Notes: generated by a model not told the origin, from the sequence alone. Positions 9,001 to 55,167 are shown, numbered from the stretch's first letter. The stretch: 64,000 bases of DNA from Thraustochytrium aureum (GCA_012862495.1 BLSG01000092.1:15221-79220); one strand, 5' to 3'. A program made the numbers and translations.

Positions 9001-12000
9001 NNNNNNNNNNNNNNNNNNNNNNNNNNNNNNNNNNNNNNNNNNNNNNNNNNNNNNNNNNNNNNNNNNNNNNNNNNNNNNNNNNNNNNNNNNNNNNNNNNNN
9101 NNNNNNNNNNNNNNNNNNNNNNNNNNNNNNNNNNNNNNNNNNNNNNNNNNNNNNNNCTCTGCGCCGGAGCAGAGCGTGCTCGGTATTGACTCGCGACAGC
9201 TCGCTGCTCTGGCAATCCTCTCTGGCGGACTCGCAAAGCTGTATCCTGGCTCCAGTGCGTTTGTTATCAACGTGGACGAGGCTTCTTGCGCATGGCCTGG
9301 CCGACTGCCTGCAGAACTCAAGGAGCCCGTCGTGGCGCAGGTCACCTTGCCCTTCCAACCCGACGGCCGGCCAGTTGCCAGCGTGTCCAACCTCCAGATT
9401 GTACCAACGATAGACTTGACGGGTACGAGCCTGGCGCGGGACCTCGGCGCCGCAGCGCACGAACTGGTGGAGGTGGCCATCGGGTTTTCTCGCGACGTGT
9501 TGTTGGCTTATCCCCAAACTGCTCGGAGATGCGCCACTCGATACAAGGTTGCGCCCACCCGGGCCTCACTCGACGTCTTCGCGGACCGCTCATCGACCAA
9601 ACGCCTTGGCACTTTGGAGCGTGGAAGCGAGGTGCGGGCGACTCGCCGCGTCGGTTGCTGGGTGCAGCTGGAGCAAGCGCAGGCGCGCTCCTTTGGCGAA
9701 GACGTGCAGGAGGCATGGGTCATCGCGCAAGACCCGGACGACGACTATCTACTCGCTCCAGAGTTCGACGAGGAACCTTCTGGGTCGCAGAGTGCAGTGC
9801 TGGCTGTTGTCTTGGCGCTAAAATCGCTGTGTGAGTTTGCGGACGACGCAAAGCTCGCAGAGCTTGTCGCGGCCTCGATCCTATCCAGCGACCGCCGCAG
9901 CCCTCTCCGCTTGACCGAGCTCGTCGACCTGGCCCTAGACGAGTCGCCAGAGGTAACTCTGGGCGACGTAGGGCTCCTCGAGGAGCGGCTAAGCATGGTC
10001 CACGAGGAGCGGTTTTTGTGCGCTTGGCAAAGCGACCGAGCCAAACCCGGAACCGACGGCGTTGCAAGTCAATCCGGCGCCAAACCAGTTCGCAGCGAAA
10101 ATGGTCAGACGGAGAGCGATCAAGCCAGCACCGACAGCGAGGCGGACCCGCGCACACCTCCACACCGAGGCAGTGCCGGCAAAAAGCCAGCAACGGATGC
10201 AAACGACCAAGCCTCGCAGTCAGCGCAGGCCTTGCTTGCTGGAGGCGACGCGAGTACCAGCGAAGAGTATCAGGGAATGGTGCTACAGATTATGGACATG
10301 GGGTTTCCGCTCAGGTGGGCCGAGTTCGCGCTGCAGCGGACTGGCGATGTAACAGAGGCGATCACGTACATTTGCTCAAACGGCGATGTGTTGGACAGCC
10401 ATATTGTGGCAGCAGCAACCCTGGCGTCAGCGTCGGGTAGGCACAGCGACGTCCACGTCGCAGAAGGCGCTCCAGACGACACGGCCGCTGACGAAGAGCT
10501 TGTCGTCGATAGGCTGATGCATGCTGCAGGCCCTGGCGCGGCGGAAGCGCAGGAGGGGGACGAGGACGAGGTGCCAGATCCTGATCGAACGCCCGCGGGG
10601 AGCGAGCTGGATGAAGACTATATGGAGTTAGACGGCATGGATCTGCCCGGCCTATCCTTCTCAGGCGCCGCCCTGGACAACAGATGCCGTGCTGGACTTG
10701 CCGCCGGCTCAACCAAAGACAGCAGCGAATCGTCTGCGCTGCCGTTTCTCGGGCTGAATAGCGAGAACAAGCGGGCGCTTGCTGGGGCCTGCAAGCGGGT
10801 GTGGGGACCGTGCGCAGACTCGCGAGCCTCGTACGCTGACCTGATCGCAACCTACAGTGTCGGCGAGCTCGATGAGGAGTTGCGTCTTGTGGCTCACACA
10901 GTGAGCGTCTTGCGGGCTCGGTTCCTGCTTTTGAGCGTCCTCTGTGCGGCAGGGCGCGAGAAGGCGTTGCTAGGCGAGCTGCACCAGGTCTTGCAGGCGA
11001 ATCAAGGCGCCATTGAGCGCATCATCCAGGTCCTGGTCATGGAGTGCTTTGTCTCGTACAAGTTTTACACGGTCCCGATCCTTGAGCGCCTCTGCGCCGC
11101 CTGCTCTGGTTGCTCGCACCCGGCGCCCGGGGATCTCTCGCTCCCAAGCTTGGCCAGGCCGCTGGTGCGGTCACTTCTCCAGTCAAGTTCGGGGACGGTA
11201 GAGGAAGTCCTCCTCAGCTCTGTCCGGGAGCACGTCATGAAGGCAGTTTCCGCGGATGTTGTCATCGACAGCCACATTCGCGGACCGGGCGGCGACAGCG
11301 CCGTGGCCGCCCCGTCGTCGTCGATATCGCTGTGGTTTGTCGATTGGGCGACCAAGCTCTTGACGGAGAGCTGGCGCGAGAGTCTGCTGCGCGCGTCTAC
11401 AGAGACGGGGGCGCCGGCCCCCAAGAGGTCTGGGGAGAGCATCCGTATGAAGCTCTTTCGGACTTGGGTGCAGGCCATGCGGTCTCCGAGCTCTGCTATC
11501 AAGTGCAAGGCGATGGATGTGCTTTGCGGGTTTCTTGCGGATGCAGGGGAGGAGGCGCGAAAGTCTGGCTGCTCCGACTTGCCGAGCATGCTGGAGGTAG
11601 TTCCCTACCGTCGCTTGCGTTCGCTGGCTGCCCGCAGTGTCTGGCGCGCAGCCGACGACCCCGACGGTTTTGGCCCTTACGTGAAGGGTCTGGTTCGGCT
11701 TGTGGCTGCGATCGAGTCCTGCCACGCCCTCGACCCCGCGCGGATCAACGGGCCTCCGCGGCTTGGTGGGCTCCGTTTGCGGCCAAAGGGCCATGTCGAA
11801 TTTCGCGAAGCGAATGGGCAGGTGCAACCGCCGCTCAGCGTGCCCTGGACGGTGAGCATGTGGATCCGCTGCGAAAAGGGGTGGGACGGCGCTGGCGGCG
11901 TCGAGGCGGGTCTCCGGCCGCGTCGAGTGCTTCTCAGCCGGTTCCCGGCAACTGCGGCTGCAGCAGAAGGTCGACTCTCTTCAAGCTCGTCTGGCGCGAG

Positions 12001-15000
12001 TCCCCTCCAACTCGTTGCAGCGACGCAAGTGGGCGGGTACGTCGGCGTCGAGTCCGCCAACAAGGGCGAGCGGTCGCTTGGATTCCGCCTCCCTGAAGGT
12101 GCGTGGACGCTGGTCACCTTTGTGTGCGGCCGCCTTCCGCTCGTGGCGACGAGGGCAGGTCGTGCTCGAGCAGGCAGCCGCAGGTCGAGAGGGCGGCGCC
12201 CGGCCAGACACGCCCCTCGCGAGGGCGAGAGCGACTGGGCAAAGGTTGACGCCATGGAAGCAACGAGGCAGGCCGGAAGTCATGACCACAACATCGCCCA
12301 GCGGAGCANNNNNNNNNNNNNNNNNNNNNNNNNNNNNNNNNNNNNNNNNNNNNNNNNNNNNNNNNNNNNNNNNNNNNNNNNNNNNNNNNNNNNNNNNNNN
12401 NNNNNNNNNNNNNNNNNNNNNNNNNNNNNNNNNNNNNNNNNNNNNNNNNNNNNNNNNNNNNNNNNNNNNNNNNNNNNNNNNNNNNNNNNNNNNNNNNNNN
12501 NNNNNNNNNNNNNNNNNNNNNNNNNNNNNNNNNNNNNNNNNNNNNNNNNNNNNNNNNNNNNNNNNNNNNNNNNNNNNNNNNNNNNNNNNNNNNNNNNNNN
12601 NNNNNNNNNNNNNNNNNNNNNNNNNNNNNNNNNNNNNNNNNNNNNNNNNNNNNNNNNNNNNNNNNNNNNNNNNNNNNNNNNNNNNNNNNNNNNNNNNNNN
12701 NNNNNNNNNNNNNNNNNNNNNNNNNNNNNNNNNNNNNNNNNNNNNNNNNNNNNNNNNNNNNNNNNNNNNNNNNNNNNNNNNNNNNNNNNNNNNNNNNNNN
12801 NNNNNNNNNNNNNNNNNNNNNNNNNNNNNNNNNNNNNNNNNNNNNNNNNNNNNNNNNNNNNNNNNNNNNNNNNNNNNNNNNNNNNNNNNNNNNNNNNNNN
12901 NNNNNNNNNNNNNNNNNNNNNNNNNNNNNNNNNNNNNNNNNNNNNNNNNNNNNNNNNNNNNNNNNNNNNNNNNNNNNNNNNNNNNNNNNNNNNNNNNNNN
13001 NNNNNNNNNNNNNNNNNNNNNNNNNNNNNNNNNNNNNNNNNNNNNNNNNNNNNNNNNNNNNNNNNNNNNNNNNNNNNNNNNNNNNNNNNNNNNNNNNNNN
13101 NNNNNNNNNNNNNNNNNNNNNNNNNNNNNNNNNNNNNNNNNNNNNNNNNNNNNNACATGGGCACGGTTGCGTGGGAAGTCGTCGTGGACGCCGGCGGCAG
13201 CGAGCTAGGTCTAGTCTCGTTGGGGGTTTGCGCGAAGGGAGCCGACCTCGCGAAGCGGTGTGGGAGCGACTGCTACACATGGGCGCTAAATTCGAACGGC
13301 TCTGTGGTGCACGACAACGCCGAGCGGTCCTTTCTCCCCGTGTCACTGAAGCCTGGCGACGTCGTGTGCCTCGAACTCAACACCGATGCAAGAATCCTCA
13401 GCGTTGCTGTGAATGGGCGCGACTATGGCGCTGCGTTCACGAGCCGCGACGAGCTGCTCGAGGAGCCTGTTTCGCCCTGCGTCGGTCTTCGGAGCTCCGA
13501 CGACGATGTCATCCGCCGCGTGGGATTGAAGCACGGGCAAGCCTCGGTTGATTACCTCGGGGAGGGCGACCCGCGAAGCCGGTTCGAAGGAAACTGGCAG
13601 AATGGCCGCATGGACGGATATGGGACGCTTTGGATGCGCGACGGGCGGCGCGAGAGCGGCGTTTGGAGCGCTGGGAAGCGAGAAGGGGTCTTCAGGGTCG
13701 ACGCAGCGGATGGCGCCGTGACGTATGTGCTTTACATTGACGGAATGTCTGTCCAAGACGCTCCGATTCCGCAGGAGATGATCAACGAGCTGGAGCAAAC
13801 CCAGCGCGGCTCTACCCCGGGTGAAGGGGTTGGTTCATCAGGCGAAGCGGCACCGAGTGAAAGAGAGGCAATTCAAGGCGATCCGGCGCAGGTCGAACTG
13901 GGCCCCGAGGCTTTGGTGGAGACCGAGGTGCGGGGCTCGCTCATCGCAAGCCGGAACGCGTTGTTCGTTCTGGACGCGGATTCTGCGGGCCCAGGAATCA
14001 AAGTGTCCGACGACGGGCTTTCCGCCGAGTTTGTGGGAACAAGCGCGGGCTCTGGGGCGCGCTCATGCGTTCTTGGGAGCCACGGTTTCTCCAGCGGGGT
14101 TCACTATTGGGAGGTCAAGGTGCAAGGGATGCAGTGGGGATCGACCTTTATCGGCGTCTCGCAGCGCGGCGCTGGCGTGGGGTCGAGTTGGGGCAACGGG
14201 TACGGATTCGTCAACTACCGCGCGACGCACGGCCCGGAGGGGGAGCGCCTCTACGGCTCCTTTTACGCCGTAGGCGACGTCGTGGGCGTGCTTCTGGACA
14301 TGGACCGCGGCCGCTTGCACTTTTTCAAGGACAGCAAAGACTTTCAATCGGGGGAGAAGCAGGTCGTCGTTGATCTGGGGCTTGCCTATTCGGGGGTCCG
14401 CGGGCAGCCAAAGAGGCGTCCGGGGCCCGGCGTGGAAATGCGAGATGCGCCGTCTTGGGAAGGAGACGGTCCCGTGTTCTACCCGTGCTTTGGCCTCTCC
14501 AAGGCTCGCGACCGCCTCTGTCTGGCGCAGACCCGTTCTCTCTCCTTTGGGGCGCTCACCCCCAACGACCGCCTCGCTGATGCTACGGCAACAATCAGCG
14601 CTCTTACGCGATGGGGCGACGACGCTCTTTCCGTAAGCCCTGTCGAGTCCGGGCCCTGCTCCCTCTCGCGCGAGGCTTTTGCCTTGTATTGCCGCTGGCA
14701 CCGCCCTTCGACGAGAGGACCGCAATTTAAGCTATACTGGGCCCTCGGAGGGCTGCCGGTCGAGGTCTCACGTGATCGCAAGGCCTGCGAGGCAGCTTGT
14801 CCAAGCGACGAGCCCTTGTACCCCGGTGATCGGCTCAAGACCGACCGCGGTGCGGTCACTGTCGTCGGGACTCATCGCGGCTGCATCTGGTATGCGGTTG
14901 ATGGCTCTGACACCGCCCTGTTTTGGAGACCCCGCGAGCTCGCTACTCTGCTCTCTGACAAAAAGGTTTCGCGCCTGGACGGTGGGGGGCCTGTGCGGGA

Positions 15001-17071
15001 GGAGCCCCCCCCGAGCGAGTCAGACCAAGAGGTGACCGCTGCCGGCATCCGAGAGAGCGCTTGCGATCCGCGGTGGGGCTTTGCGCAAGATTGCCGCGTG
15101 GTTCAGATTGTGAATCGCGCGTGCGACGAGCGCTCTTGCGAGCCAGAGCAGCTCCACCTTTCCATCCTGCGCCGCGCAGTCGCTGGCGCGATTGCAGGCG
15201 ACTCTGCTTGCGCCCGTGCTATCGGCGAGTTCGACTGGGCCGTGGTCAGGGACCGCTTTCTCGTTTTGCTTGCTTTGAACGTGCGCGCGCGGCGCTTGCT
15301 GCAGTTAGTGGATCTCGAACAGGCCTGGTCGGGCAAGGTGCGCTTTGGCGGCGAGCTCTCCAGCGACGATGCCGCGCTCGGGTCTCTCAAGGCCGTGATC
15401 GAGCGCCTGCGAGGAATTGTCTTCACACGCGTCAAGCTGGCGTACTGGGACTCGCTGCTCCAGCTGTCCACAACGCCGACAATCCCGGCTGCGGACGAGT
15501 ACGACCCACCGCCGGACTTTCCGAGCGTCAAGGTGAACCGAATCCAGGCCAGCGCGCACCTGCTCGCAGCCCTTCCGCCGCGCGAAAAGTTGGCCCGCTC
15601 TGTGTTTGGCCAGCTCATGATAGAGAACGGTCTCGCCTCCTGGACGCCAGCGCGCTGCGTCGCGCCTACTCGCACATCCAAGACGCCAGCCAGAAGCGCT
15701 GCTTCTTCGTCAAGTTTGCGTCCGAGGGCGTCGACGACCACGGGGGGCCCTATCGGGCTGTCTTCCAGATCGCAATCGAGGAAGAGGCCGCTGGGGCGCT
15801 GCGCATCCTCGTGCCAAGCCCCAACGCGGCTGAAGGGGCGATGGAGAACGTGGACAAGCTCATCTTTAGTGCCGCACCNNNNNNNNNNNNNNNNNNNNNN
15901 NNNNNNNNNNNNNNNNNNNNNNNNNNNNNNNNNNNNNNNNNNNNNNNNNNNNNNNNNNNNNNNNNNNNNNNNNNNNNNNNNNNNNNNNNNNNNNNNNNNN
16001 NNNNNNNNNNNNNNNNNNNNNNNNNNNNNNNNNNNNNNNNNNNNNNNNNNNNNNNNNNNNNNNNNNNNNNNNNNNNNNNNNNNNNNNNNNNNNNNNNNNN
16101 NNNNNNNNNNNNNNNNNNNNNNNNNNNNNNNNNNNNNNNNNNNNNNNNNNNNNNNNNNNNNNNNNNNNNNNNNNNNNNNNNNNNNNNNNNNNNNNNNNNN
16201 NNNNNNNNNNNNNNNNNNNNNNNNNNNNNNNNNNNNNNNNNNNNNNNNNNNNNNNNNNNNNNNNNNNNNNNNNNNNNNNNNNNNNNNNNNNNNNNNNNNN
16301 NNNNNNNNNNNNNNNNNNNNNNNNNNNNNNNNNNNNNNNNNNNNNNNNNNNNNNNNNNNNNNNNNNNNNNNNNNNNNNNNNNNNNNNNNNNNNNNNNNNN
16401 NNNNNNNNNNNNNNNNNNNNNNNNNNNNNNNNNNNNNNNNNNNNNNNNNNNNNNNNCCTCCTTGATAAGTTGGAAGACCTCTCCGAGCTAGCGGATTTGC
16501 TTGACGAGAGGGGGGAGATTCCCTTTGCGCAGCGCGCGCGCTTCACCGAGGCAATCGTCAAGCAAGACCTCCTGCAATGTGCCCCACAGATCGAGACATT
16601 CGCGGAGGGGCTGGCCGACGTGCTTCCAGTTCAGTGCTTTGGGCTCTTTACCCCGAGCGAGCTCGAGGTCCTCGTCTGCGGGGGGGCGGGATCGACGTTG
16701 ACCTGTTGGAGCGCGCGACGCAATACGAGGACGTTGACCCGGAGGCGCCGTACGTGCGGCGTTTCTGGGCTGCTCTCCGGGACATGTCGCAAGAGGAGCG
16801 CAGCAAGTTTATCAATTTTGTCTGCGCGCGGTCGCGGCTGCCAAGCTCCGTTGACAAGTTCCCGATGATGTTCAAGATCACGCCGCCTCCTGGTGATGGC
16901 GACAACCTCTTGCCAAAGGCGCAGACCTGCTTTTTTAGCCTCAGCTTGCCGCGCTACTCGACAAAGGAGCTCTGCATGAGCAAGCTCCTCTACGCGGCGG
17001 ACAACTGCAACACGATGGAGGACTATGATCAGCATGACGCGAACGGGTTCGAGGGTCTTTCAGAGGCGTGA
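1..17071 (+). CDS. Giant multidomain HECT E3 ubiquitin ligase (ZZ, SPRY x4, LamG-like x2, SH3-like, UBA, MORN, HECT); probably 5'-truncated at the window edge; split by frameshifts and N gaps
   Basis: Stitched from ORFs 248, 3391, 3540, 5993, 6534, 8504, 15061, 16470 and 16577. ZZ finger CDGC..CANCEGFDLCLDCY..H..H (~1845-1970); SPRY motifs (VYFEV..RVGW, GVHQWQV, VAWEV, GFSSGVHYWEVKV); LamG WNHVAV..FAGYMAEVRVW; UBA MDMGFP..AL; MORN FEGNWQNGRMDGYG; HECT VKFASEGVDDHGGPYR, FTPSELEVLVCG, LPKAQTCFFSLSLPRYS (catalytic Cys 16928-16930); stop at 17069-17071. Confidence 0.9.
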
Positions 17072-38361: not shown

Positions 38362-41254
38362 GTGCGCGGCGCCGTCGTCGCGGCGGCGCCGTCGTCGCGG
38401 GCTCGCGGGCTCGCCGGGTTCGTTTGGCGCGGGCACGCCCCGCCATTTCGGTGGGCCGGTCGTGGTCCGCGAGGATGCTCGACAAGGCGAGCTTGACCCG
38501 CACGCGGACGCTGCGCGGCAGGCGGGGCCGGGGAAGCGCGGGGATGGGCGAGTCGTGGCGGAGGCCGTCGTGCGGCCGAAGATGGATGGGAGCGGGTGGG
38601 AGATGGTGCCGAAGGTCGACGCTGGCACGTGTGTGACCAAGCTTGTTGTCCAGGCGGTTGGGACGCATGTCGGTGTGCCGCACGGGGCAGGGCTTCGGGC
38701 GCTGATCGAGGCTGTTGGCGACGTGGAGGAGGTCGATCTCGCGCTCCTGAGGCTCCCCTCGCGCGAGTTCTTCCGGGACGTTCTCGGGCCACTCGCGAGC
38801 AAACCGAGCTTGAGCGCGGTCAAGTTGGACGGGGCGCTCTGCTTTGTGCACTCGGCGCCGCTGATGCGCGCTGGCGCTTGCCAGCGACTGCAAGCGGGCC
38901 AGCTTTTGCCAATCGAGCGGATGGCAGTCACCTCGGCGTGGGCGACGTGGTCCTTCCCGCTGGCCGCTCGCACGGGCAAGTGGCTGTTCGGCGTTGCGCT
39001 CGACCTGCGCGGCGAGGGGGCCTGCTCGGTCGAGATCGGCTTTGTGATTCCCGCAGGCGCGCCGCGGCCCGTCGCGCGCTGGGCGCTTGACCCGGAAAAC
39101 GGGCTCGTCCCCTTGACGTCCAGCTCCGCCTCCTGGCCAGGGGCAGGCCTGACGCCTAGCTGGACGCTGCGCATAGGCTCTGCTGACAGGATCGCAGTGC
39201 GCGTGGGCGGGGTCAGCATGCTCGTCATCCAAGTCACCATCGATTGCGACTCCGGTCGCGTCACCTTTTACGCCGACGGGGAGCAGCTTGGCGCGGTAAA
39301 CGTTGACGCCGGCCTTGTCAGCGTCGGCGAGGGGATCACGCCACTTGTTGCCGCCTCTCGCGGGGCCAAGCTCCAGGTCTCCGCCCAGACCACGATGGCC
39401 TTCCCGAACGCCACTTTTGCAGCGTGCCAGCGCGTGCGGGACGACCTGCTGCAGCAAGGGTTCCGCCCGTTCGCGTTGGCCACCGCCGAGCCAGACGAGA
39501 TCGCCCATGCATGGGGCGTGGCCTCGGCGTGCTTTAAGCGCGTCAGCCATGTTGCGGTGTCCAATCTCACGGCCATCACGCAGAGCCACGTCTTTCGCGC
39601 CCTGGACAGGCTTGTAACCTTGGACCTGAGCGGCGCCAGAGCTGGAGACGCACGGTTCGCTTCGCTATGCAGTTGCCTTGCGCGGATCAAGGCGTCCTCT
39701 TCGCTAAAGGCCCTCTTGCTGGACGACAATGGGATTTCGGACCTCGAGCCCCTGCTCGACTTGTTGCGCTCAAAACCAGGGCGCAGACTCGCAAAGCTGC
39801 ACCTCAGCGGCAACCTGCTTGGCCCTGCTGCCGCGGCCGGCCTGGCTGAGGCCCTCGCCACCAGTGCCGTGTGCGTCACGGACCTCGCCCTTGCTCGCAA
39901 CCGGCTCAGAGTCCCCGGGCTCGCTGCTGTGCTTGACGGGCTTGCGTCGGGGCCAGAAGCGCTCAAGGCGATTCGCGCGCTTGATCTCGCGGCCAACATG
40001 CCCGCCCCAGGCTCTCCAGGAGCCGACCTGGACGACGACCTCGAGCCTGGCATGGGCGCGAATTCTGCCGACCTCCGGATCGCGCTGCACGCTGTCTTAC
40101 GCGATTCGAAGATCGAGGTCCTCAACCTCTCGCACAACTGGATCGCGCTCTCTGAGGGGCCGAGCAGCGTCTTTTCGAGGCCGTCGCGAGCGAGCGGGCA
40201 CTCGCGCGGCGGCCCAGAAAGGAGCTCTCATGATGATGCCACTGACATGAGCGCTGCGGCCACATTGAGAGACTTTCGGGCTGTTGGAACGGCGTCTCTG
40301 AGCGGAGCTATCCTCGCGACCCTTGAGCGCGCTGCGACCTGCTCGCTGCAGCGGCTCGAGCTCTCCGCGGCAGATTTCGTTGGAGAAGCGTTTGTCAACG
40401 CGGTTTCCACCGTCGAGAGCCTCTCGGTAGACTTTTCCGAGCGCCCTGCGAGTATCGCGCCGAGCTCGCAGCGCGCGCCGCTCGAGCCGCAAAACGCTCG
40501 ATGGGCTTCGTTGATCTGCTCGATCACCTCATGTACAGGTCGAAAACTTCGACACAGCCGACGTGCTCGAGCCTGGAGCTCACAGCAGCCGACTTTGACC
40601 AGGACGCGGCCGAGTCGCTCGCGCTCCTGCTCCAACGCCCCAATACGCAGCTGGGCCGCCTTTGCCTCTACGGGTGCACCGGCGGTGCCCTTGCTCGCGC
40701 GGCCTGCGGTCCTCGGCTCAAGCACGTCGAGCTCGTCGGGTGCGGGCTCGGGCAAGGTCGCTTGCTGGAGGGGTTCGCAGAGTCGCTCGTCCACATGCCA
40801 GCGCTCGAGCGGCTGGGGCTTCGGGGAAACGGAATCGACGGGGGCGGACTCCGGATGCTCTTGCTGACCGGGAGCGAAACGCCAGCGCCGCGCGTCCTCG
40901 GGGCCATGCTGCGGCAAGTCGACCTCAGCGAGAACCCGATCCCGACCGCGGCCCTGGCGCACGCTTTTGAGGCTCTCAAGGAGAATACCACAATCCGCCG
41001 CCTCGCGTTGAGCGCGTCGCTGGGGCTCTGCACGCCGGTGCCGGCGCCCCCTGACGAGGACTCGATGGTAGCAGGGTTGCTCGCCCAGTTCCTCGAGCTG
41101 GATTCGGTAGATGCGCGAAGGGACCTGATCTGCGACCTGTTTCTCCGGCGGCAGTCTTCGGAGCTCGCCCACGGCGGGCGAGCCCGCTCGCGGTCTGGAT
41201 CTCGAGGCGCACTCTCCGCCGTGGCCGCCAAGGTCGTGGGGCGGCGTCGCCGCC

Positions 41255-41287
<33 letters not shown>

Positions 41288-44200
41288 CTTCGCGCGTTGA
41301 AGTGAGCCACCTCGGGCACTGTTGGTTGGCGGCAGAGCGCCTGCGCCCAGTCGTGCTCGTGTGCCTGGACTGGGTGCTTCAGAACGACGAGGCGGTCACC
41401 CTCGTGGGCGACCTTGTGGTCGGGAGCCGGTCGAGCGTCGGCCTCGCAGCGACCGCGCGGTTCCCGTTCTCTCGCGTCCAAGGAGACTTGGTGCTGTGTG
41501 CGGTCGACAGTTTTGTTGACGCGAGCGCTGTGCGCAGCGTGGAGGGCGCCTTTGTAATCAGCGGCCAGGCGTCATCTCCGACGCTTTGCGCCGACTACCT
41601 AGAGGCCGGCCAGGCGCTGGTTGTGCGCGAAGTTGCCATCAGGTCGCTCCCGGCCAAAATTCGAACGGGCGTGCTCGCCGTGGGAGGCTGCGCGGACCTT
41701 CGCGCGCTTCCGCCAGACCTCCAAGCCCGCCATGTTATCCTTGACGACTTGCAGCTGGCTAGCTTGCCGGGGACCCGCCCTCAAGACCGCACCGTGGCGT
41801 GCAACAAGTTTGATTTGCAGCGCGCAGAGCGGCGCGTCCGCATCCCGATGCAGGTTGACAACACGCGCTGGGCCGGGCTGCGCAGCCTCGAAATCTCCAA
41901 TTGTCCTTTGGTGGAGGCCCTTCCTGCCGGCCTGACGCTCACAAACCTCACGCTCTGCTCGCTGCCTACGTTTGCGTTTGAGACCCAGTCGCCCGGCTTT
42001 CTTTCGGTGGATGGGTCCCTCACGCTCGTGGACCTCCCCTGGGTGGCGAGGCTGCCCGCTGGCATCACGGCGCTCGACGAGCTGGTCATCGCAGAGTGCC
42101 CTCGGCTTGGCAGGCTTTCCCCCACGCTAGTCGTTCGCAGCGTTCTGGACGTTCGACAGTGCCCGATCCGGTTTTTGCCGGGGCGCCGGCATGCTCCGCC
42201 TTGCTGGGGGCAAGCTTTTGCTGGAAGAACTGCCGCGCCTCGAGAGCCTACCGGCGAGCCTTGAGCCCGATGTTATCATTTTGCGGCTCCTGTGCAACCT
42301 TTCCAGCGCCGTGCCAGTGCCCGCGAGCGAGCTCGAGATTTGCTGGTGCCCGCGCGTGCGCGAGTTGCGGTGGCCGCACACTCGCCGGTCTGGCCCGAAA
42401 GGCGCTCCCGCGCTTGGGCTTCGGCGCCTGCACTTGGAGGCCAACGCGAGCCTCGAGTGGCTGGCGCCTCTGGCATCCAACGGTTCTGCACAAGAGGGCT
42501 ACCCCGTGATGATGCGCCCCGGGCCAGACACTAGCGTGACGCTATGTACATGCCCGCTCCTGAGGAGCGTCCCCGTTGCTGCTGGCCGCGTGGGGTCTCT
42601 AGAAATCGATTCGTGCGACGCGATCGAAGAACTGGACGGCGGCGCTGCCTCCCGGTGCCTGACCGTGTTGAGCTGTGCCGGGCTCGAGCGCATCACCGGG
42701 CCGGTCGTTGCCGTCGAGGAGCTCGAGCTTGAGATGCTGTCGGCGCTCGAACGGGTCCCAGCCCTCCAGGTTGGGCGATCGGTGTCGCTGCGCTGGATCC
42801 CGCTCTTGCGCGAGATCGGCAACCTTGGAGTGCCGGAAGGTCAGCAAGAGCTCGAAACGGCGTTTCTGAGCGGGCTCGGGATCGTCCGCACGCCCGCCGC
42901 GCTTCGTGCGCGTATGGCGACCATTTCGTACTGCCCGAACTTGGTCGCGCTCGGGGCGGGGTTGAGCGTCTCGCAGGCGCTTCGCCTGGACCAGCTGCCA
43001 CGACTCGTCGGGTTCCCGGGCTCGGCGCGGGCTGCTGGCTCCGTTGTGATTACAGAGTGCCGCGCTTTGACAGACATCCCCGAAGGGACTATAGCGGCTG
43101 GGTCGACAGTGGCGATCGGAGGGCTCGGCGCGCAGGGCTGGGCGTTGCAGGCCCTGCGAAGCAGGCTCGAGAGCGAAGGCGTCGAGCTCGAGGTGCCAAG
43201 GTACGCACACGCCGCGCCANNNNNNNNNNNNNNNNNNNNNNNNNNNNNNNNNNNNNNNNNNNNNNNNNNNNNNNNNNNNNNNNNNNNNNNNNNNNNNNNN
43301 NNNNNNNNNNNNNNNNNNNNNNNNNNNNNNNNNNNNNNNNNNNNNNNNNNNNNNNNNNNNNNNNNNNNNNNNNNNNNNNNNNNNNNNNNNNNNNNNNNNN
43401 NNNNNNNNNNNNNNNNNNNNNNNNNNNNNNNNNNNNNNNNNNNNNNNNNNNNNNNNNNNNNNNNNNNNNNNNNNNNNNNNNNNNNNNNNNNNNNNNNNNN
43501 NNNNNNNNNNNNNNNNNNNNNNNNNNNNNNNNNNNNNNNNNNNNNNNNNNNNNNNNNAGGCTGCCTTGGCGTTTTGGACCGCGCTTGCCGCGGGGACTGG
43601 TCGCTCGATGCCTCGCGGCTGGAGGCCGCGCTCGAGCGCGGCGACCACGCGGGCCTGCTCATGTTCCTGCGCAAGCTCGCGGCCTCCAAGGAGGGTAAAC
43701 AGCCAGGCACAAACCAGGGGCCTCGCGGCGCGGGTGGTCGAGGTGCTCGATGTCGTCTCCACCACGAGCGAGCGCTCGGTGCGGCGCGAAATCCTGTTGC
43801 GCGTCAACGACAGCGTGGACGCGTGCCACGACAAGCCCATCTGGGCCCTGAACCAGGTCCAGCAGCTCGTGCAGTCCGTTGCGGCTCGAGGAGACCGGGC
43901 CAAGCTCAAGGCCCTTGGCCGCGCCGTCATGCGGCTCGAGATAGTGCACAAGCACGCGCGTGCCCTCCTCGCGGCGCTGGACCCCGACACCGACGACGTC
44001 TGCGTTTTCCTCAGCTTTGAGATAGACCTGCGCGAGCGGCTCGAGCTGCCGGTGTCTGCCCAGGCGATGTGGTTCCCCAACGTTGTACAGATTCCGCCCG
44101 AAGCGCTTGACGCGGCGTGTGAGGAGGCGCTCGCAGTGAGCGAGAGCAGCTTTGAGGCGTGGCTCGTGTCTTGGCCCGAGTGGCAACGGCAGCTCCGCAC

Positions 44201-44447
44201 GGAGGCAGCCGCAGAGATTGACTTTGCCTCGCTGCCGCGCGGCCAGCTCAACAAGCGGCTCTCGGGTGTGCCGACCTCGTTTGCGGGCGACGAGCTGCGC
44301 GAGCCGGTGCTGGTGGGCCAGGCCGGGCCGTACGAGCTTGGCGAGCTCCTGGACCGCTGGGTGGAGACAGGGATGGACTTCAACAACGTGCCGTGGACCG
44401 CAGACTTGGCGGCGTTCCGAGCCGCGCTGCGCGGCCTCGACCTCTGA
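38362..44447 (+). CDS. SPRY + RI-type LRR + second LRR block + NEL (IpaH/SspH-like) E3 ligase domain + U-box-like C-terminus; 5' end in gap; frameshifted
   Basis: SPRY-like GKWLFGV..VEIGF..IDCDSGRVTFY.DG..TPLV (~38940-39380); RI LRRs LKALLLDDNGISD, LAKLHLSGNLLG, LERLGLRGNGIDG; LxxLxIxxCxxLxxLP repeats (41650-43100); NEL FLRKL..V.EVLD..ACHDK..RL..DDVCVFLSF..LRERLELPV..MWF..W..WQ (43560-44200). Confidence 0.8.
41256..41287 (+). repeat. (AGC)n trinucleotide repeat inside the CDS
   Basis: About 10 tandem AGC units. Confidence 0.9.
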
Positions 44448-44696
44448 GAGCAGCTGCGAGAGCGATTCCCTTNNNNNNNNNNNNNNNNNNNNNNNNNNNN
44501 NNNNNNNNNNNNNNNNNNNNNNNNNNNNNNNNNNNNNNNNNNNNNNNNNNNNNNNNNNNNNNNNNNNNNNNNNNNNNNNNNNNNNNNNNNNNNNNCGAGA
44601 GCGATTCCCTTCGAATAGCATGCTACTCTATCGTGTAATTTGCTAACGTGTTTACTACTCACCCTACCGACCCGACCTCGCTACTAGCCGCCCTGC

Positions 44697-45352: not shown

Positions 45353-46247
45353 NNNNNNNNNNNNNNNNNNNNNNNNNNNNNNNNNNNNNNNNNNNNNNNN
45401 NNNNNNNNNNNNNNNNNNNNNNNNNNNNNNNNNNNNNNNNNNNNNNNNNNNNNNNNNNNNNNNNNNNNNNNNNNNNNNNNNNNNNNNNNNNNNNNNNNNN
45501 NNNNNNNNNNNNNNNNNNNNNNNNNNNNNNNNNNNNNNNNNNNNNNNNNNNNNNNNNNNNNNNNNNNNNNNNNNNNNNNNNNNNNNNNNNNNNNNNNNNN
45601 NNNNNNNNNNNNNNNNNNNNNNNNNNNNNNNNNNNNNNNNNNNNNNNNNNNNNNNNNNNNNNNNNNNNNNNNNNNNNNNNNNNNNNNNNNNNNNNNNNNN
45701 NNNNNNNNNNNNNNNNNNNNNNNNNNNNNNNNNNNNNNNNNNNNNNNNNNNNNNNNNNNNNNNNNNNNNNNNNNNNNNNNNNNNNNNNNNNNNNNNNNNN
45801 NNNNNNNNNNNNNNNNNNNNNNNNNNNNNNNNNNNNNNNNNNNNNNNNNNNNNNNNNNNNNNNNNNNNNNNNNNNNNNNNNNNNNNNNNNNNNNNNNNNN
45901 NNNNNNNNNNNNNNNNNNNNNNNNNNNNNNNNNNNNNNNNNNNNNNNNNNNNNNNNNNNNNNNNNNNNNNNNNNNNNNNNNNNNNNNNNNNNNNNNNNNN
46001 NNNNNNNNNNNNNNNNNNNNNNNNNNNNNNNNNNNNNNNNNNNNNNNNNNNNNNNNNNNNNNNNNNNNNNNNNNNNNNNNNNNNNNNNNNNNNNNNNNNN
46101 NGTGGCGGGCGGGACCGTCCTCGCACGAGGCTGAACGGGGCGCTCGGAATCGGCAGGCGCACTCGTGAAGCGCAGCGCATTTCGACGCCTCGCGGGCCGT
46201 TGCAAGCGAGAAGCGCACGCCGGCCCAGCGCCAAAGAGGGTGAGAGG

Positions 46248-48908
46248 CTAGAGCAGCACGACTTCGCCCGCGTCGGTCTGGCCGTCCTGCAGGCGGGCAC
46301 CAAACGTGCGGCCAGTGACGGCCTGGGTCTCCTTGAGGACATCGCGCAGCTCGATCTGCTTTGTCTGGATCTCCCGGAGGAGCTCCCGCGCGAGCTGGAC
46401 TCGGTAGAGGTTGGGCAGCATATCCTTGTACGCGCGCGCGAGGATGACTGCGAGGACGTTGAAAATAATGAGGGCGATGAAGAAAAAGAAAGCGTCCCAC
46501 AACCCTTTGGTTGTGCAGAGCTCGCGCACGGCGAATCCAAAGTCGGTCCCGATGGACTCGCACGCTGTGAGGCCGACAATCGGCGCGTAGAGGTCGGTCG
46601 AACGGTACAGGTCGACTGCGGGCAGGCTCGAGTTGCACAAATCTAGCGCCGAGTCCGGGCTGGAGAGAACATCATAGTGTCTCAGGTTTGCCTGCAGGAG
46701 GGCGTTGCTGTACGGGTTGAATGTGGTACCCGAGAAGGAGCAGGACGATATGAACGCCGCCACGTTGAACTGCGACACGAGCTCGTTGTCGTTGTAGGCG
46801 ACCTTGTACGGGTAGCGGAACATGTAAATAGCAGCCGCGATCTGCTCCTCTGGCGGACTCTGGATGCTAGCCACACTCGTGTTGGCTAGCAGCATGCTCG
46901 GCGAGGAGCACAGGTCGCTGGCAAAGGTCAACACAGCGGCGGCAACGGCCAGCACGATCCAAGTCAAGAAGCAGGCGACCACTAGAATCGGGCGCAACTT
47001 GCTGCCGAGGTGGTAGCTCATTCGCGTACAGACGATCTTCTCCTTGCCCCACTTGAACGTGCAGTACGTGAGCAACAGCGAGAGGATCGCAAAGGCAATC
47101 ACAATCGCCAAAAGCAGCACGAGGCACACCCAGGTGATTTCGATCCACGACGTGTACGTCTCAAAGTCGTCAAGCTCGGCCACGACGACATTGATCGGAT
47201 CGACGAGCGCGACATAGCTCTCCAGGAACGCTGCCTCTTGCTGAAGCGACGCCAGATCAGCCGCAGAAAAGAACGCCCCGCACTCTGCCTCGACGTCCAA
47301 AACGGCGTCAAGGGCGGCAGCACTTCGCTGCTCTGCGTCTGTAAAGCTTCGCACGACTCCCTCGCTCATTCTCAGCAGGCTCCGAACGGTCTGCCGAAAC
47401 TCGCCGCTGAGGAAAATGCCGATCGGCGTCACTGCGAGCGTGCTGGACATCAGCACCAGCAGTAAGATGCGCACGCGAAAGCCGCTTGGCATCAGCGCGG
47501 CCTTGAGCTTGGCCTTGAGGCCCATAATGTCTGTGCGAAGCCGCTGCGCTTTGAACCGCCGCCTGGTCAGGGTGGCGCGATCAGTGATGTTGCGGACGAA
47601 TTGCCGCGTGCTCGACAGGGAGTGAAGGTGAGTGCCGCGACCGCCTCGCGACCGAGCCGCCGCGGTCGCCGGACCTGTTTGAGAGCGGGCCGGTTGCTCC
47701 GCGGCGCGGCCTGCCTGGCCGTCCGTTAGCGGGACCATCTCGACGTCAGCCCCAGCATGCGCCTGATACCCGCTTTGGCCTGCGTCTAGTGCCAACCTTT
47801 GCGTGCCTTGCTCGTTCGCCACCGCGTCAGCTTGAGCGCAGGCGGCATCTGCAGAGCTAGGCCGTTCCGACGGAGACGCATCTGCCTCGCTCAGCGGCGC
47901 GGGCCAAGGAGGGGAGCCAGCCCCGTACGGGTCCGCGGGGCGCACGGTTTGGCAGCACGGCGCGCAAATCCCGCAAAGCAGCACGGCGCAAAACCCACCG
48001 TGAACCTGCCCGAGGAGCGCGGCCTCCTCGCTGCTCTGGCCGCAGCATGACCGGCAGCAAGGAGAACACCGCCCGCAAGCGCGGCAAAACTTGGACATGC
48101 GCTTTACAGAAAAACAGGCTGTGAACCACGGGTTGCAGATGCAGATCAGGGCCGCGATGATCAGGAACGGGACGCCCGTGAAAGCGACGCCCTCCGCGTA
48201 GGCGGTCCAGTTCGGGGTGCTTGGGTACTGAAACAAATTCGTCCTGTTGAAGAGCCTTGGAAACTGGTGAAACACCGGAACGAACCAAGGCGTTAAGAAG
48301 ATCGTGTCGGTCTGGCAGTTTAATACAAACCAGCCCACGTCGGAGACAACGACCGAGGACTGGTTGAACGCCGAGGCGTTCCAGTTTTCAATCAGACCGG
48401 ACTCCACGCTCACTGTGCCCGTAAAATTGTACGCCGTGTTCGAGAACTCTAGCACATCATTCTCGTACAGCACGAATGAATCGAACGACGGGTCGTACCC
48501 AGAGACGTTCCCGTACGTCACAATCGGAACGGCCAACAGGTCTGTGTACATCCAGCACTTCAAATTCAGATACCAGGTGCTCTGCTGCTGCCCTTGGGTT
48601 TCGTCGGCCCTGGAGAGGTCCACCAACGGCACTGCGAAGTCCTTTCCGCCGTCGTAGGCAGCTGCGAGAATGGGTATTTCCCCGCGAGACTGGCCCGTCT
48701 GCAACATGGGCGATGAAGGCCGAACGAGTACAGCCAACTCTTGTGGCCCAAGGCCGCCCGATATCGTAGAGGTCGTGATTGGCAAGGACTGGAGAGGCAC
48801 GTTTCGATCTGCGATACCATACGCGACCTGCGGCAGGTAGTCCCTGAATATCCCTTCCGCGAGACTGGGCGACGCATAGTCAACGGCGGGGGCGGCAGGT
48901 CGATCCAT
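46248..48908 (-). CDS. Tweety (TTYH)-like five-TM membrane protein with a long N-terminal luminal extension; true start may lie upstream
   Basis: Five hydrophobic helices in TTYH spacing; TM4 followed by SDLC..P; C..I..ELC..GLW before TM5; glycosylated N-terminal region; Cys-rich loop after TM1. Confidence 0.6.
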   Translation of the reverse strand: MDRPAAPAVDYASPSLAEGIFRDYLPQVAYGIADRNVPLQSLPITTSTISGGLGPQELAVLVRPSSPMLQTGQSRGEIPILAAAYDGGKDFAVPLVDLSRADETQGQQQSTWYLNLKCWMYTDLLAVPIVTYGNVSGYDPSFDSFVLYENDVLEFSNTAYNFTGTVSVESGLIENWNASAFNQSSVVVSDVGWFVLNCQTDTIFLTPWFVPVFHQFPRLFNRTNLFQYPSTPNWTAYAEGVAFTGVPFLIIAALICICNPWFTACFSVKRMSKFCRACGRCSPCCRSCCGQSSEEAALLGQVHGGFCAVLLCGICAPCCQTVRPADPYGAGSPPWPAPLSEADASPSERPSSADAACAQADAVANEQGTQRLALDAGQSGYQAHAGADVEMVPLTDGQAGRAAEQPARSQTGPATAAARSRGGRGTHLHSLSSTRQFVRNITDRATLTRRRFKAQRLRTDIMGLKAKLKAALMPSGFRVRILLLVLMSSTLAVTPIGIFLSGEFRQTVRSLLRMSEGVVRSFTDAEQRSAAALDAVLDVEAECGAFFSAADLASLQQEAAFLESYVALVDPINVVVAELDDFETYTSWIEITWVCLVLLLAIVIAFAILSLLLTYCTFKWGKEKIVCTRMSYHLGSKLRPILVVACFLTWIVLAVAAAVLTFASDLCSSPSMLLANTSVASIQSPPEEQIAAAIYMFRYPYKVAYNDNELVSQFNVAAFISSCSFSGTTFNPYSNALLQANLRHYDVLSSPDSALDLCNSSLPAVDLYRSTDLYAPIVGLTACESIGTDFGFAVRELCTTKGLWDAFFFFIALIIFNVLAVILARAYKDMLPNLYRVQLARELLREIQTKQIELRDVLKETQAVTGRTFGARLQDGQTDAGEVVLL

Positions 48909-51823: not shown

Positions 51824-52399
51824 NNNNNNNNNNNNNNNNNNNNNNNNNNNNNNNNNNNNNNNNNNNNNNNNNNNNNNNNNNNNNNNNNNNNNGGACCAGC
51901 TCCGCTGCCCCAGTAGTTCATTCTCCAGCCCTCTCGCCGGGTGGGCAGGGCAGCCTGGCCACCCTTGCCCAGCCCGCTGCGGCCCGCGAGCGAACGGGCG
52001 GCGCAGCTCGACTTCGCCCGGGAGAGAACGGGTGGTGCACGCTGGGCGCCTCGGCGTCAACTCCCTCCGCCCACAAGACCAAGCCTCTCGCCCCCCAGGG
52101 GGCGGCGCAGCAGTGCGCGATGCCAGCGCCCTGACCAGCGAGCAAGGGAGCGAGCGAGTCCGCCGAGCAGCGACGGGCCAATCCACCGATCGAGGTCTGG
52201 CGGCGTGGGCTCCATGAAGGTGGAGGAGGGTCCAACTCCAATGCTGCATCCCGCGGCGCCTCGCCCACGCCCCGCGCGCGCTCCAGAGACGTGAGGAGCC
52301 CGCGCGCCAGCTCGCCCGCCGCGCGCTGTCTGCACACCCGCGCGGCGGCAAGCAGGTACAGAGTTGGTGGCATTCTTCGTTTCCTTTGTTTCATTCGTC

Positions 52400-52984
52400 A
52401 TGGCGAGGAAGAAGGCGGCGGCGGCGGCGGCGGCGGCGGCGAGCCCGAAGCACGGTGAGAATTCCGGCGCCGGCGCGGAGGCGCCTGTGGTGGGCGACGA
52501 GGCCAAGGGCGTCCCCTCGGTCGCCTTCGTTTTGCCTGTCGTGCTTGGCGCCGTGCGGTTCAGCGGGTTCGAGTGGACCGACGAGCTCCTTTGGTTTGGC
52601 CAGCTGGTCGTGGTGGCGGAGGCGCTCCTTGCGCTCGCCGTGCTCTGGTTGATCAAGAGAAAGGTGGAAGGCGCCGCTGACGTGCTCTCCAAGCAAAAGG
52701 TTCGCGCGCACAAGCCTGCCGAGGCGCTAGGCGGGGAGGCGACCCTCGAAGAGACCAACATGCTCGCGTGGGAGCTCGCCCAGCTCTCTGCGGCGCAAAA
52801 GCCAGTGTTGATCGGGGCATTCGTGGCGTTTGCGATTCCGATGGCGATGGGCGTCAACCAGCCCGTGATGCTGCAGGCGCTGCTTATCCCCGTCGAGCTT
52901 GTGCGACTACCGCTTTTCCGCAAGTACATTTTGGGTGGCGCAGTTGCGCCGGCCGCAGCGGCGCCCCGGGCAAAAGCCGAGTAG
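52400..52984 (+). CDS. PHO88/SND3-like ER membrane protein
   Basis: TM hairpin, WE..QL, hydrophobic segment, G.NQPV.LQ..L.P..L...PLFRKYILG; clearly paralogous to the gene at 53676-54660. Confidence 0.6.
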   Translation: MARKKAAAAAAAAASPKHGENSGAGAEAPVVGDEAKGVPSVAFVLPVVLGAVRFSGFEWTDELLWFGQLVVVAEALLALAVLWLIKRKVEGAADVLSKQKVRAHKPAEALGGEATLEETNMLAWELAQLSAAQKPVLIGAFVAFAIPMAMGVNQPVMLQALLIPVELVRLPLFRKYILGGAVAPAAAAPRAKAE

Positions 52985-53675: not shown

Positions 53676-54660
53676 CGAGCTCGCCGCGCGCTTTCGCGAC
53701 GTCGAGGAGAGCAACTAGCGTCTCGGCGCTGCCGTAATATGCGGCCCAGTGCAGCGCAGTCCACCCGTCAGAGTCTTGCACGTCCAGCGCGGCGCCATTG
53801 TCAAGCAGGTGGCGCACTGTAGGGACCATTTGCGCACTCGCATATTTTGCGGCAATCATGAGGATCGTCCAGCCTCCGACGGGCGTCGGCAGGTCGACCA
53901 GTTTGGCCTCAACAGCAAACTCGGCCACGGGCTTGCAAGCGGCGACCTGCGCGCTCGCGTCCAGGCCCGCCCGCGCTGCCCGCAAGATATCGGCGACAAG
54001 TTTCTCGGACAGCTCCTTTGAGCCGTCGCTGACGCCCAGCTCGATGCCGACTTTGGCGTCGGGCGCGAGCTTTTCCTCGACGAGCTTGGTCCGGGCAGCG
54101 GCCTCGTCAGCCTTCTTCGCAATCCCCTCGAGGTGCGCCTTGGCTTCCGCCTCGGGGATGGCGCCCCAGGGACGGGCGAAGCGGATGCCGAGCGCGCGGG
54201 AGCGGAAAACCTCTGACCGCACAAAGGTGACCGGCATGAGCACGATCTGCAGGAGGATGGGCTGGTTGTACCCCAAGAAGTAGGGCACGGCAAAGACGGT
54301 CACGAGGCTGATCAGCAAATCACGCTGCAGCTGGTACACCTTGCGCAGCTCAAATTCAGCGACCTTGACGCTGCAGAGCGGCTGCTTTAGTTGCTCCTCG
54401 GTCGCCGCGCCATACGACTCGGTGGGCACCCAGATCACCCTGTCCCTGTCCGCGGCCCTCCTCACCATCGAGCTGATATACACCGACACCAGCAAGAGCA
54501 CGGCGGCCTCGATCACGACCATGACCTGGCCAATCATCACGCGCTCCGCGGTCCAATCGATGTCCTTGGCCAAGTACAGCAGCGGGAGGGCCAGCAGCGA
54601 GGTGGGCACATCCTTGGACCCATCGAACAGCTCCTGCACGCTCGCGCCGGCGCCGCTCAT
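53676..54660 (-). CDS. PHO88/SND3-like protein fused to ankyrin repeats (3' end in gap)
   Basis: KDIDW, FELRK, GYNQPILLQ..P..FR..LG..ARPW; ankyrin GWTILMIAA..V..LL..GA.LD.QD.DGWTALHWAA..G. Confidence 0.7.
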
Positions 54661-54682
54661 CGCGGCCGCTAGAAACCGTCTG

Positions 54683-54741
54683 CAACCCAGCCACCCAACC
54701 AGCCAACCAACCAGCCAACCAGCAAGCCAGCAAGCAAGCCG
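54683..54741. repeat. Degenerate (CAACCAGC/CAAGCCAG)n tandem repeat in the 5' region
   Basis: ccacccaaccagccaaccaaccagccaaccagcaagccagcaagc. Confidence 0.7.
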
Positions 54742-55167
54742 ACGCGCCAGCCCAGGCAGCGAGCGCCCAGCGGCACAAACAAACGATGCGCGTCTGCGTG
54801 CGCTCCGCCCCAAAAAAGCATCTTGACTCTTGAAACTCGTCTAGACTCTTGACATCCAAGACAAGCGTTGCCATTCGCGGGTTAGGGTGCAGGTTAGCGA
54901 AACCAGGGCGAGAGAACAGCAGGGCGGACACGGAACTGGGCAGCGAGTTCCAGGCAGAGCTGCTTGAGAGCGTGCGTGCGTGCTGGCGTGTGGGCGATCG
55001 TGCGATCGTGCGGGGCTCGAGGAGGGCCGGCCGTGCGCGAGCGCCTCGCGGCTTCGAAAGGCGCGTGGCTCTTGCCGGCTGCTGTCGAGCCGGTTGCTGT
55101 GGCCTCACTGCTTCGCGTTGGGTTGTTGGTTGGGCGCATCCGTGGCGCAAGGCGCACGTGGACCGTC

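Follow-up and report, generated by a model that had tools for sequence, protein, structure and literature searches.

A Thraustochytrium aureum gene that likely encodes an LRR-NEL ubiquitin ligase with a predicted U-box-like tail

NEL ubiquitin ligases are known as bacterial type III secreted effectors, such as Shigella IpaH, Salmonella SspH1, SspH2 and SlrP, and rhizobial NopM, in which leucine-rich repeats (LRRs) are followed by the NEL domain (PF14496). In the accessible part of PMC9320238 they are called exclusive to pathogenic or symbiotic bacteria, and its section 3.3 gives a C-x-D nucleophile and a second Asp as the residues that define them. The C-terminal subdomain of classical NELs is a thumb that binds E2-Ub, according to the available text of PMC12506513. 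U-box ligases (Prp19, CHIP, Ufd2/E4B and the bacterial LubX, AvrPtoB and NleG) share a zinc-free RING fold. Canonical U-boxes need no catalytic Cys. In RBR ligases (Parkin, HHARI, HOIP), a RING-like E2-docking domain is combined with a separate catalytic Cys, and their RING1 domains appear to lack the linchpin (PMC5462532, part available). Bacterial NELs and U-box ligases are listed separately in the accessible parts of PMC13720258 and PMC12591485.

The gene described here lies in a 64,000-nucleotide stretch of Thraustochytrium aureum DNA, referred to as the window. Like the NEL effectors it has LRRs followed by a NEL domain, with the C-x-D motif, the second Asp, the W-x-x-W motif and the NEL fold over residues 1-165 of the structure model. 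Compared to these type III secreted proteins, it is eukaryotic by context and clade and about three times longer, with a SPRY domain and RI-type LRRs. It reads C-x-D-K-P where they have C-E-D-R, a U-box-like fold replaces their helical thumb, and it falls far under the NCBIfam cut-offs for IpaH, SlrP and SspH2. The gene likely works as a NEL ligase, yet it departs from two defining features of the group, namely being a secreted bacterial effector and carrying the helical thumb. Its parts are as follows.

38582..44447, plus strand: whole gene, likely a single SPRY-LRR-LRR-NEL-U-box ORF of ~1,850 codons; the putative start is the first Met of the first ORF piece
38582..40495, plus strand: N-terminal part, a SPRY-like domain and then RI-type leucine-rich repeats (homologue-profile E 5.8e-13)
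40501..43219, plus strand: further RI-type repeats, then Cys-containing LRRs (homologue-profile E 1e-20 and 1e-19)
43220..43557, no strand: 338-N scaffold gap inside the gene, where one contig of run X1 puts 55 letters and keeps the frame
43560..44219, plus strand: NEL catalytic subdomain, its first helices split over two frames and continuous from about 43720
43824..43832, plus strand: C-x-D catalytic motif, Cys at 43824-43826 and Asp at 43830-43832, aligned with the C-E-D of IpaH
43992..43994, plus strand: Asp equivalent to Asp397 of IpaH9.8, from alignment to 3l3p with the numbering of PMC9320238
44256..44444, plus strand: predicted degenerate, zinc-free U-box/RING-fold domain in place of the helical E2-binding thumb (structure model and tail profile)
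44473..44595, no strand: 123-N gap, likely a contig overlap joining the end of the gene to a DUF4807 gene, with an identical 16 bases on either side

The assembled gene is not continuous: its frame breaks near 40.5, 42.18, 43.6 and 43.72 kb, and an N gap interrupts it. Public contigs give a tiling of 38808-43595 whose sequence departs from the assembled one at the breaks, and a single contig (run X1, 38 letters on its shorter side) crosses the left gap. Because the contigs bridge this gap and differ from the assembly at the breaks, the NEL domain likely ends one SPRY-LRR-LRR-NEL gene of ~1,850 aa, as in Hondaea and marine-transcriptome homologues; this length is arithmetic from the contig comparison, and the homologues have 1,400-1,940 aa. 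The 40.5 kb break is at variance with contigs of X1 and X2 and the 42.18 kb break with contigs of X1, X2 and X3; the 43.72 kb break is contradicted by one X3 contig only (depth 3.6), and the sole contrary sequence at 43.6 kb is a loose end of nine letters. A profile of nine SPRY-type LRR-NEL homologues matches five separately scored ORF pieces, broadly in gene order, and its sole other clear match among the 151 window ORFs is a SPRY gene at 13 kb. In Pfam, the N-terminal part matches SPRY at E 0.021 and LRR_4 at E 6e-4, both under gathering; the SPRY domains of the homologues score E 1e-10 to 1e-19. The region 40501..43219 gives tblastn matches to the homologues P0002, P0003 and P0006 and a weak pairwise match to a bacterial protein (P0128, E 2e-4), and Cys-containing LRRs of the same kind precede the NEL in bacterial NEL-U-box proteins. 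These LRRs are likely substrate-binding and autoinhibitory. The bridging contig, the homologue profile and intact homologues place the N-terminal LRR region and the NEL in one protein, the LRR scores of the window alone being under the Pfam cut-offs.

The NEL-bearing piece comprises 915 bases (43558-44472) between the two N gaps. The original prediction described the flanking genes as clearly eukaryotic, and the flanking ORFs do belong to eukaryote-type Pfam families (e.g., Pho88, CCCH zinc finger, Fz, SPRY/MORN and DUF4807); the flanks by themselves gave no linkage because the piece lies between gaps of 338 and 123 N. That the NEL sits in the gene of the protist itself is instead supported by the bridging contig, the 16-base overlap at the right gap, a host-like GC3 (0.86; the nine flanking ORFs in correct frame span 0.70-0.89, with a tenth, Cac1, excluded because its frame was wrong) and homologues on 0.9-Mb contigs of Hondaea. 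Six of the nine listed public runs contain the 915-base piece (five studies); the contig comparison covers four of them, of which X1 and X3 may be RNA. Run X2 matches the NEL and its flanks alike, with 17 of 18 pieces at 99% or more, and could be the sample from which the assembly came. A tblastn search with seven homologues found one NEL within the window, and an Rfam search of the window returned no match.

The original prediction had recognized the NEL from its motifs and proposed a Pfam profile search, a structure model with Foldseek and a phylogeny as checks. The presence of the domain is confirmed, with a match well outside what chance would give. All quoted motifs are present, including the Cys codon TGC at 43824-43826. 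They do not share a single frame: AALAFW and everything from LAARVV onward lie in one frame and LMFLRKLAASKE in another, which places the frame breaks near 43.6 kb and 43.72 kb. Past the predicted end at 44200, the frame stays open until a stop at 44445-44447. Translated in this frame, 43560-44444 reaches 82.1 bits against Pfam NEL PF14496 (gathering cut-off 24; E 5e-23; profile positions 41-222 of 223), and all 12 PDB sequence matches at E<=10 are NEL ligases (SlrP, IpaH and SspH; E 3e-9 to 1e-5). A structure model of 43725-44444 (240 aa, built with 105 sequences) reached a pLDDT of 96.5. It matches the solved folds of SspH1, SlrP and IpaH with VIA Z 9.6-11.0 and rmsd 4.1-4.6 over 152-160 residues (best SspH1, VIA Z 11.0, rmsd 4.1 over 159 residues), and Foldseek ranks 1-11 are all NELs. 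This match is confined to residues 1-165, so the helical C-terminal thumb is missing from the window protein.

The catalytic Cys sits within D-A-C-H-D-K-P. Every eukaryote-type relative with a residue at the respective column has the Cys (84 of 84) and the C-x-D Asp (83 of 83), and 84 of 86 have the Asp397 equivalent. These sequences are mostly 35-57% identical to the window, and such conservation therefore implies that catalysis is under selection.

The last ~63 residues are predicted to adopt a U-box/RING fold. Residues 178-240 of the model match RING and U-box chains, and the tail folded alone has a pLDDT of 92.5. All fold scores of the tail (Z 4.0-5.9) lie below the caution level of 8 set for the tool, with Foldseek E values of at least 0.16; they include the Prp19 U-box (VIA Z 5.6, rmsd 2.1, 52 of 56 residues) and AvrPtoB (Z 5.9, rmsd 2.6, 68 residues). 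Among the 50 matches listed, 44 are ubiquitin or SUMO ligase entries and six are spliceosome chains, three of them named Prp19 or PPIL2, and a Prp19 U-box dimer is among the best. A sequence profile of the tail matched Prp19 (E 7.6e-6), LubX (1e-4) and PPIL2 (5e-4); the link from the window to U-boxes is indirect here, because this profile was built from 10 bacterial tails plus that of the window. Pfam U-box (PF04564) had no match in the window tail or in four bacterial tails at E<=5. Compared to established U-box ligases, the window tail has degenerate loops without the loop-2 Pro and the basic linchpin, and it is fused directly to a putative Cys-dependent catalytic domain.

A tail profile reached at least 14 bits in 85 of the 86 eukaryote-type proteins and 56 of the 57 C-x-D-R proteins long enough to hold a tail, the profile having been built from the same sequences that it scored. 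None of 79 NEL loci from bacterial genomes (from the best 80 of 217 matches) carried the tail, all scoring under 5 bits. In bacterial tails the Cys of the first U-box loop is present in 96-100% and the loop-2 Pro in 82-89%, and Chlamydiota tails are the more canonical (Cys 100%, loop-2 Pro 82%, Arg 64%). Eukaryote-type tails (n=86) have lost this Cys, the loop-2 Pro is gapped in 98%, and 84% have Asn where most Chlamydiota tails have Arg, a column that corresponds to the linchpin position in our own alignment. With these conserved U-box residues lost, the eukaryote-type tail may no longer bind E2. Its W, G and D positions are conserved in 89-96%.

A search of 1.84 billion cluster representatives retrieved 388 proteins at E<=0.001, 74 of them at E<=1e-30. 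The top 150 fall into a C-x-D-K-P group and a C-x-D-R group. For nine of the 16 C-x-D-K-P clusters looked up, the source is named or is a transcriptome, and for none is it a named bacterium; the group was labelled eukaryote-type for this reason. The nine are two from Hondaea fermentalgiana (on 883- and 939-kb contigs), four MMETSP/EukProt entries and three CAK accessions. The latter, automatically named ipaH7.8, SlrP and ipaH4.5, presumably come from a Durusdinium assembly, and no paper reporting contamination behind them was found in the literature searched. The identity of the window protein is 43-57% with the Hondaea proteins and does not exceed about 37% with the bacterial sister group. 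Members of the family carry additional SPRY, SAM, TPR, kinase and ARM domains, some probably through fused gene models. A crude hydrophobicity rule, applied to 52 long eukaryote-type proteins, flagged a membrane-like segment in six and a signal-peptide-like start in none. A homologue search at near length gave no match, and a profile search of longer proteins returned eight unrelated giant LRR proteins. The GenBank names of the two Hondaea proteins, 'Tubulin beta chain' (GBG28338, P0005) and 'Ryanodine receptor 1' (GBG24240, P0013), conceal the NEL; in both, the gene model seems to have absorbed a neighbour (tubulin and an ODAD1 coiled coil, respectively). The MMETSP headers of the P0003 cluster (member P0010) and of P0056 give taxon 87120, the fungus Rhizopogon, probably transposed from 87102, Aurantiochytrium limacinum.

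The C-x-D-R proteins are mostly without known taxonomy. The U-box tail was found in 12 of 70 metagenome loci (two identical), and several of these have bacterial neighbours: Der, GltB, PepA, RpoD and a secretin. The tail profile has matches in 11 of 401 genomes belonging to the phylum of a Chlamydiales MAG, and NEL and tail share one ORF in 17 of the 20 Chlamydiota loci cut out, from nine genomes. As judged from sequence, the LRR-NEL-U-box cassette is common to the eukaryote family and an overlooked bacterial branch (nine of 401 Chlamydiota genomes). The bacterial proteins, from Chlamydiota and other uncultured bacteria, share with the window gene the cassette, similar repeats and the same side of the NEL core tree. 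They differ in being mostly 500-900 aa long, in reading C-x-D-R, in their more canonical U-box and in their neighbours.

One 1.7-Mb single-contig genome of the chlamydial phylum (G225) contains 14 U-box-tail matches in frames of 622-2,405 aa, with the NEL core in all three loci checked (L209, L219 and L222), a large expansion of an effector family. The NELs of Chlamydiota fall into two separate lineages, of which one (L010, L037, L141 and L202) ends in a short helical tail and the other (L205-L224) in the U-box tail. Outside the chlamydial branch, NEL-U-box genes lie beside Der, GltB and PepA (L131:6675-8750 and L130:1463-3643; one contig has 468 kb). A viral origin is not supported: a search of viral contigs with the mixed alignment found no relative, and one with the bacterial alignment found 50 viral-collection loci, mostly IpaH-like and none with the tail (all under 5 bits). 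The viral collection also includes two metagenomic contigs of low GC (0.33-0.34; L124 and L125) whose 933-aa NEL protein has a short tail and is unlike the IpaH-type loci. No match came from phage records, and the 191 plasmid records that matched are classical NELs, each covering less than 80% of the query.

Trees were calculated from the NEL core only, excluding the tail, and are unrooted. In an 85-row tree (LG+C20; bootstrap not settled), 34 of the 35 eukaryote-type rows form one clade (100/99) and the 23 thumb-type rows form another (97/81). The exception, P0121, is a long branch outside the eukaryote clade, though its tail is eukaryote-type. The eukaryote clade is placed among bacterial U-box NELs with 87/82, and the sampled Chlamydiota branch is not nearest to it; support for nesting within bacteria is weak (87/82 and 89/83). 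A 50-row tree (LG+G4), from which nine long-branch, 19 eukaryote-type and seven thumb-type rows had been removed, split thumb from U-box NELs with 98/95; on these rows the AU test did not reject monophyly of the bacterial U-box NELs (p 0.388). From sequence, a single origin of the eukaryotic NEL family is well supported. The original prediction had left the choice between horizontal transfer and an ancient eukaryotic branch open, and the data lean to transfer. A bacteria-to-protist transfer is likely, not proven, because of the taxonomic distribution and the more canonical bacterial U-box.

On balance we favour, with reasonable confidence, a cytosolic LRR-NEL ubiquitin ligase of the protist itself, with a C-x-D motif, a predicted U-box that docks E2~Ub for transfer to the NEL Cys, and a cassette obtained from an intracellular bacterium. 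The U-box-like tail would dock E2~Ub, the NEL Cys would accept ubiquitin as a thioester, and the two Asp residues would help to pass it on to a substrate lysine, the substrate being bound by the LRR/SPRY region. This region may also autoinhibit the enzyme, as described for IpaH/SspH in section 3.3 of PMC9320238. Loss of the linchpin would fit a domain whose role is to bind E2~Ub and not to activate direct transfer, as reported for RBR RING1 in the accessible text of PMC5462532. The likeness to RBR ligases lies in the proposed logic only, no homology having been seen, and the catalytic part of the window protein is a helical NEL subdomain placed before the U-box. An ancestral labyrinthulomycete would have acquired the LRR-NEL-U-box cassette in a single transfer from an intracellular bacterium, and the gene would then have duplicated and taken up eukaryotic domains (SPRY, SAM, TPR, ARM and membrane segments).

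Alternative readings concern the origin of the family and the work of its tail. The eukaryotic family could be an old sister lineage or the donor rather than the recipient, a view that touches the origin only and overlaps with the reading above. Its clade has a long stem and deep diversity, and neither the AU test nor the unrooted trees speak against it. We consider it doubtful, as named members are limited to Hondaea, marine transcriptomes and three automatically annotated CAK entries, NELs are spread over several bacterial phyla, and the bacterial tails are nearer to canonical U-boxes. Similarly, an active NEL ligase might carry a degenerate U-box that does not dock E2, the tail serving in dimerization or in binding of ubiquitin or substrate, with E2 bound elsewhere. 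The loss of the first-loop Cys and the loop-2 Pro agrees with this, as does the Prp19 dimer among the best structural matches. U-box 2 of LubX, which binds substrate and not E2, is a precedent. This reading is unlikely, given that the tail occupies the place of the missing thumb, that no other candidate E2-binding part was seen and that the W, G and D positions are still conserved.

Other explanations question the copy in the window or its place of action. It would be a decaying pseudogene if the frameshifts were real, and this would agree with the weak N-terminal domain scores and with the four breaks, those at 43.72 and 43.6 kb being countered by a single contig of depth 3.6 and a loose end, respectively. 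Decay is nevertheless improbable: contigs of two studies differ from the assembly at 40.5 and 42.18 kb, four pieces are without stop codons, the catalytic residues are intact, and the conclusion on the family is independent of this copy. Export of the protein to act in another organism, in the manner of an effector, is brought to mind by the bacterial relatives, which are or likely are effectors. Some labyrinthulomycetes parasitize plants and shellfish. With cytosolic eukaryotic domains in family members and no signal-peptide-like start by the crude rule, such export is very improbable. Bacterial contamination scaffolded into the protist assembly would account for a 915-base piece between two N gaps; it is hardly credible beside the bridging contig, the host-like GC3, the higher identity to Hondaea proteins on 0.9-Mb contigs than to the bacterial sister group, and the strongly supported eukaryote-type clade.

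If labyrinthulomycetes domesticated a hybrid class of E3 that arose in intracellular bacteria, their NELs would form the first such family of eukaryotes and would add another, independently assembled type of transthiolating E3 to the eukaryotic set. In the literature searched, mostly open-access main texts, no earlier account of eukaryotic NELs was found, and none of NEL-U-box hybrids, of IpaH in Labyrinthulomycetes or of NEL transfer to stramenopiles; a description of bacterial LRR-NEL-U-box proteins was likewise not found there. The texts of PMC4209131 and PMC3417536 contain neither 'NEL' nor 'IpaH', and PF14496 appears only as a search model in the accessible parts of PMC6557245 and PMC7029713. 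The 'NEL' of algal NLR genes in the available text of PMC7145615 was set aside as an ODAL/LRR superfamily match and not the NEL catalytic family. Databases already contain automatically annotated eukaryotic NEL entries. Three findings go beyond the original prediction: how large the family is, the complete SPRY-LRR architecture and the U-box-like tail.

A native, expanded eukaryotic NEL family breaks the bacteria-only rule, and it would rank among the rare instances in which a eukaryote has taken a bacterial enzyme of host manipulation into its own ubiquitin system. Since the thumb has been naturally swapped for a U-box, E2 recruitment in NELs is likely modular. We regard it as evenly balanced whether NEL-U-box proteins form an undescribed RING-Cys hybrid class of E3 that arose in intracellular bacteria and was domesticated by labyrinthulomycetes as an expanded ligase family. 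With them one can ask how a RING-type domain comes to feed a catalytic Cys instead of activating E2~Ub, a change studied so far mainly in RBR ligases. A defence role against intracellular bacteria or viruses may be speculated upon.

Several minor features of the window were observed elsewhere. Long ORFs at 9158-15877 (plus strand) flank an N gap, have UBA-like, SPRY and MORN matches and are possibly one large ubiquitin-system gene. A convergent Pho88-family pair lies at 52295-52981 (plus strand) and 53677-54840 (minus strand), the second member being fused to ankyrin repeats. At 46170-46248, one X3 contig skips 77 bases and has five other letters instead, without GT-AG ends; this skip lies near the stop of a 906-aa minus-strand ORF.
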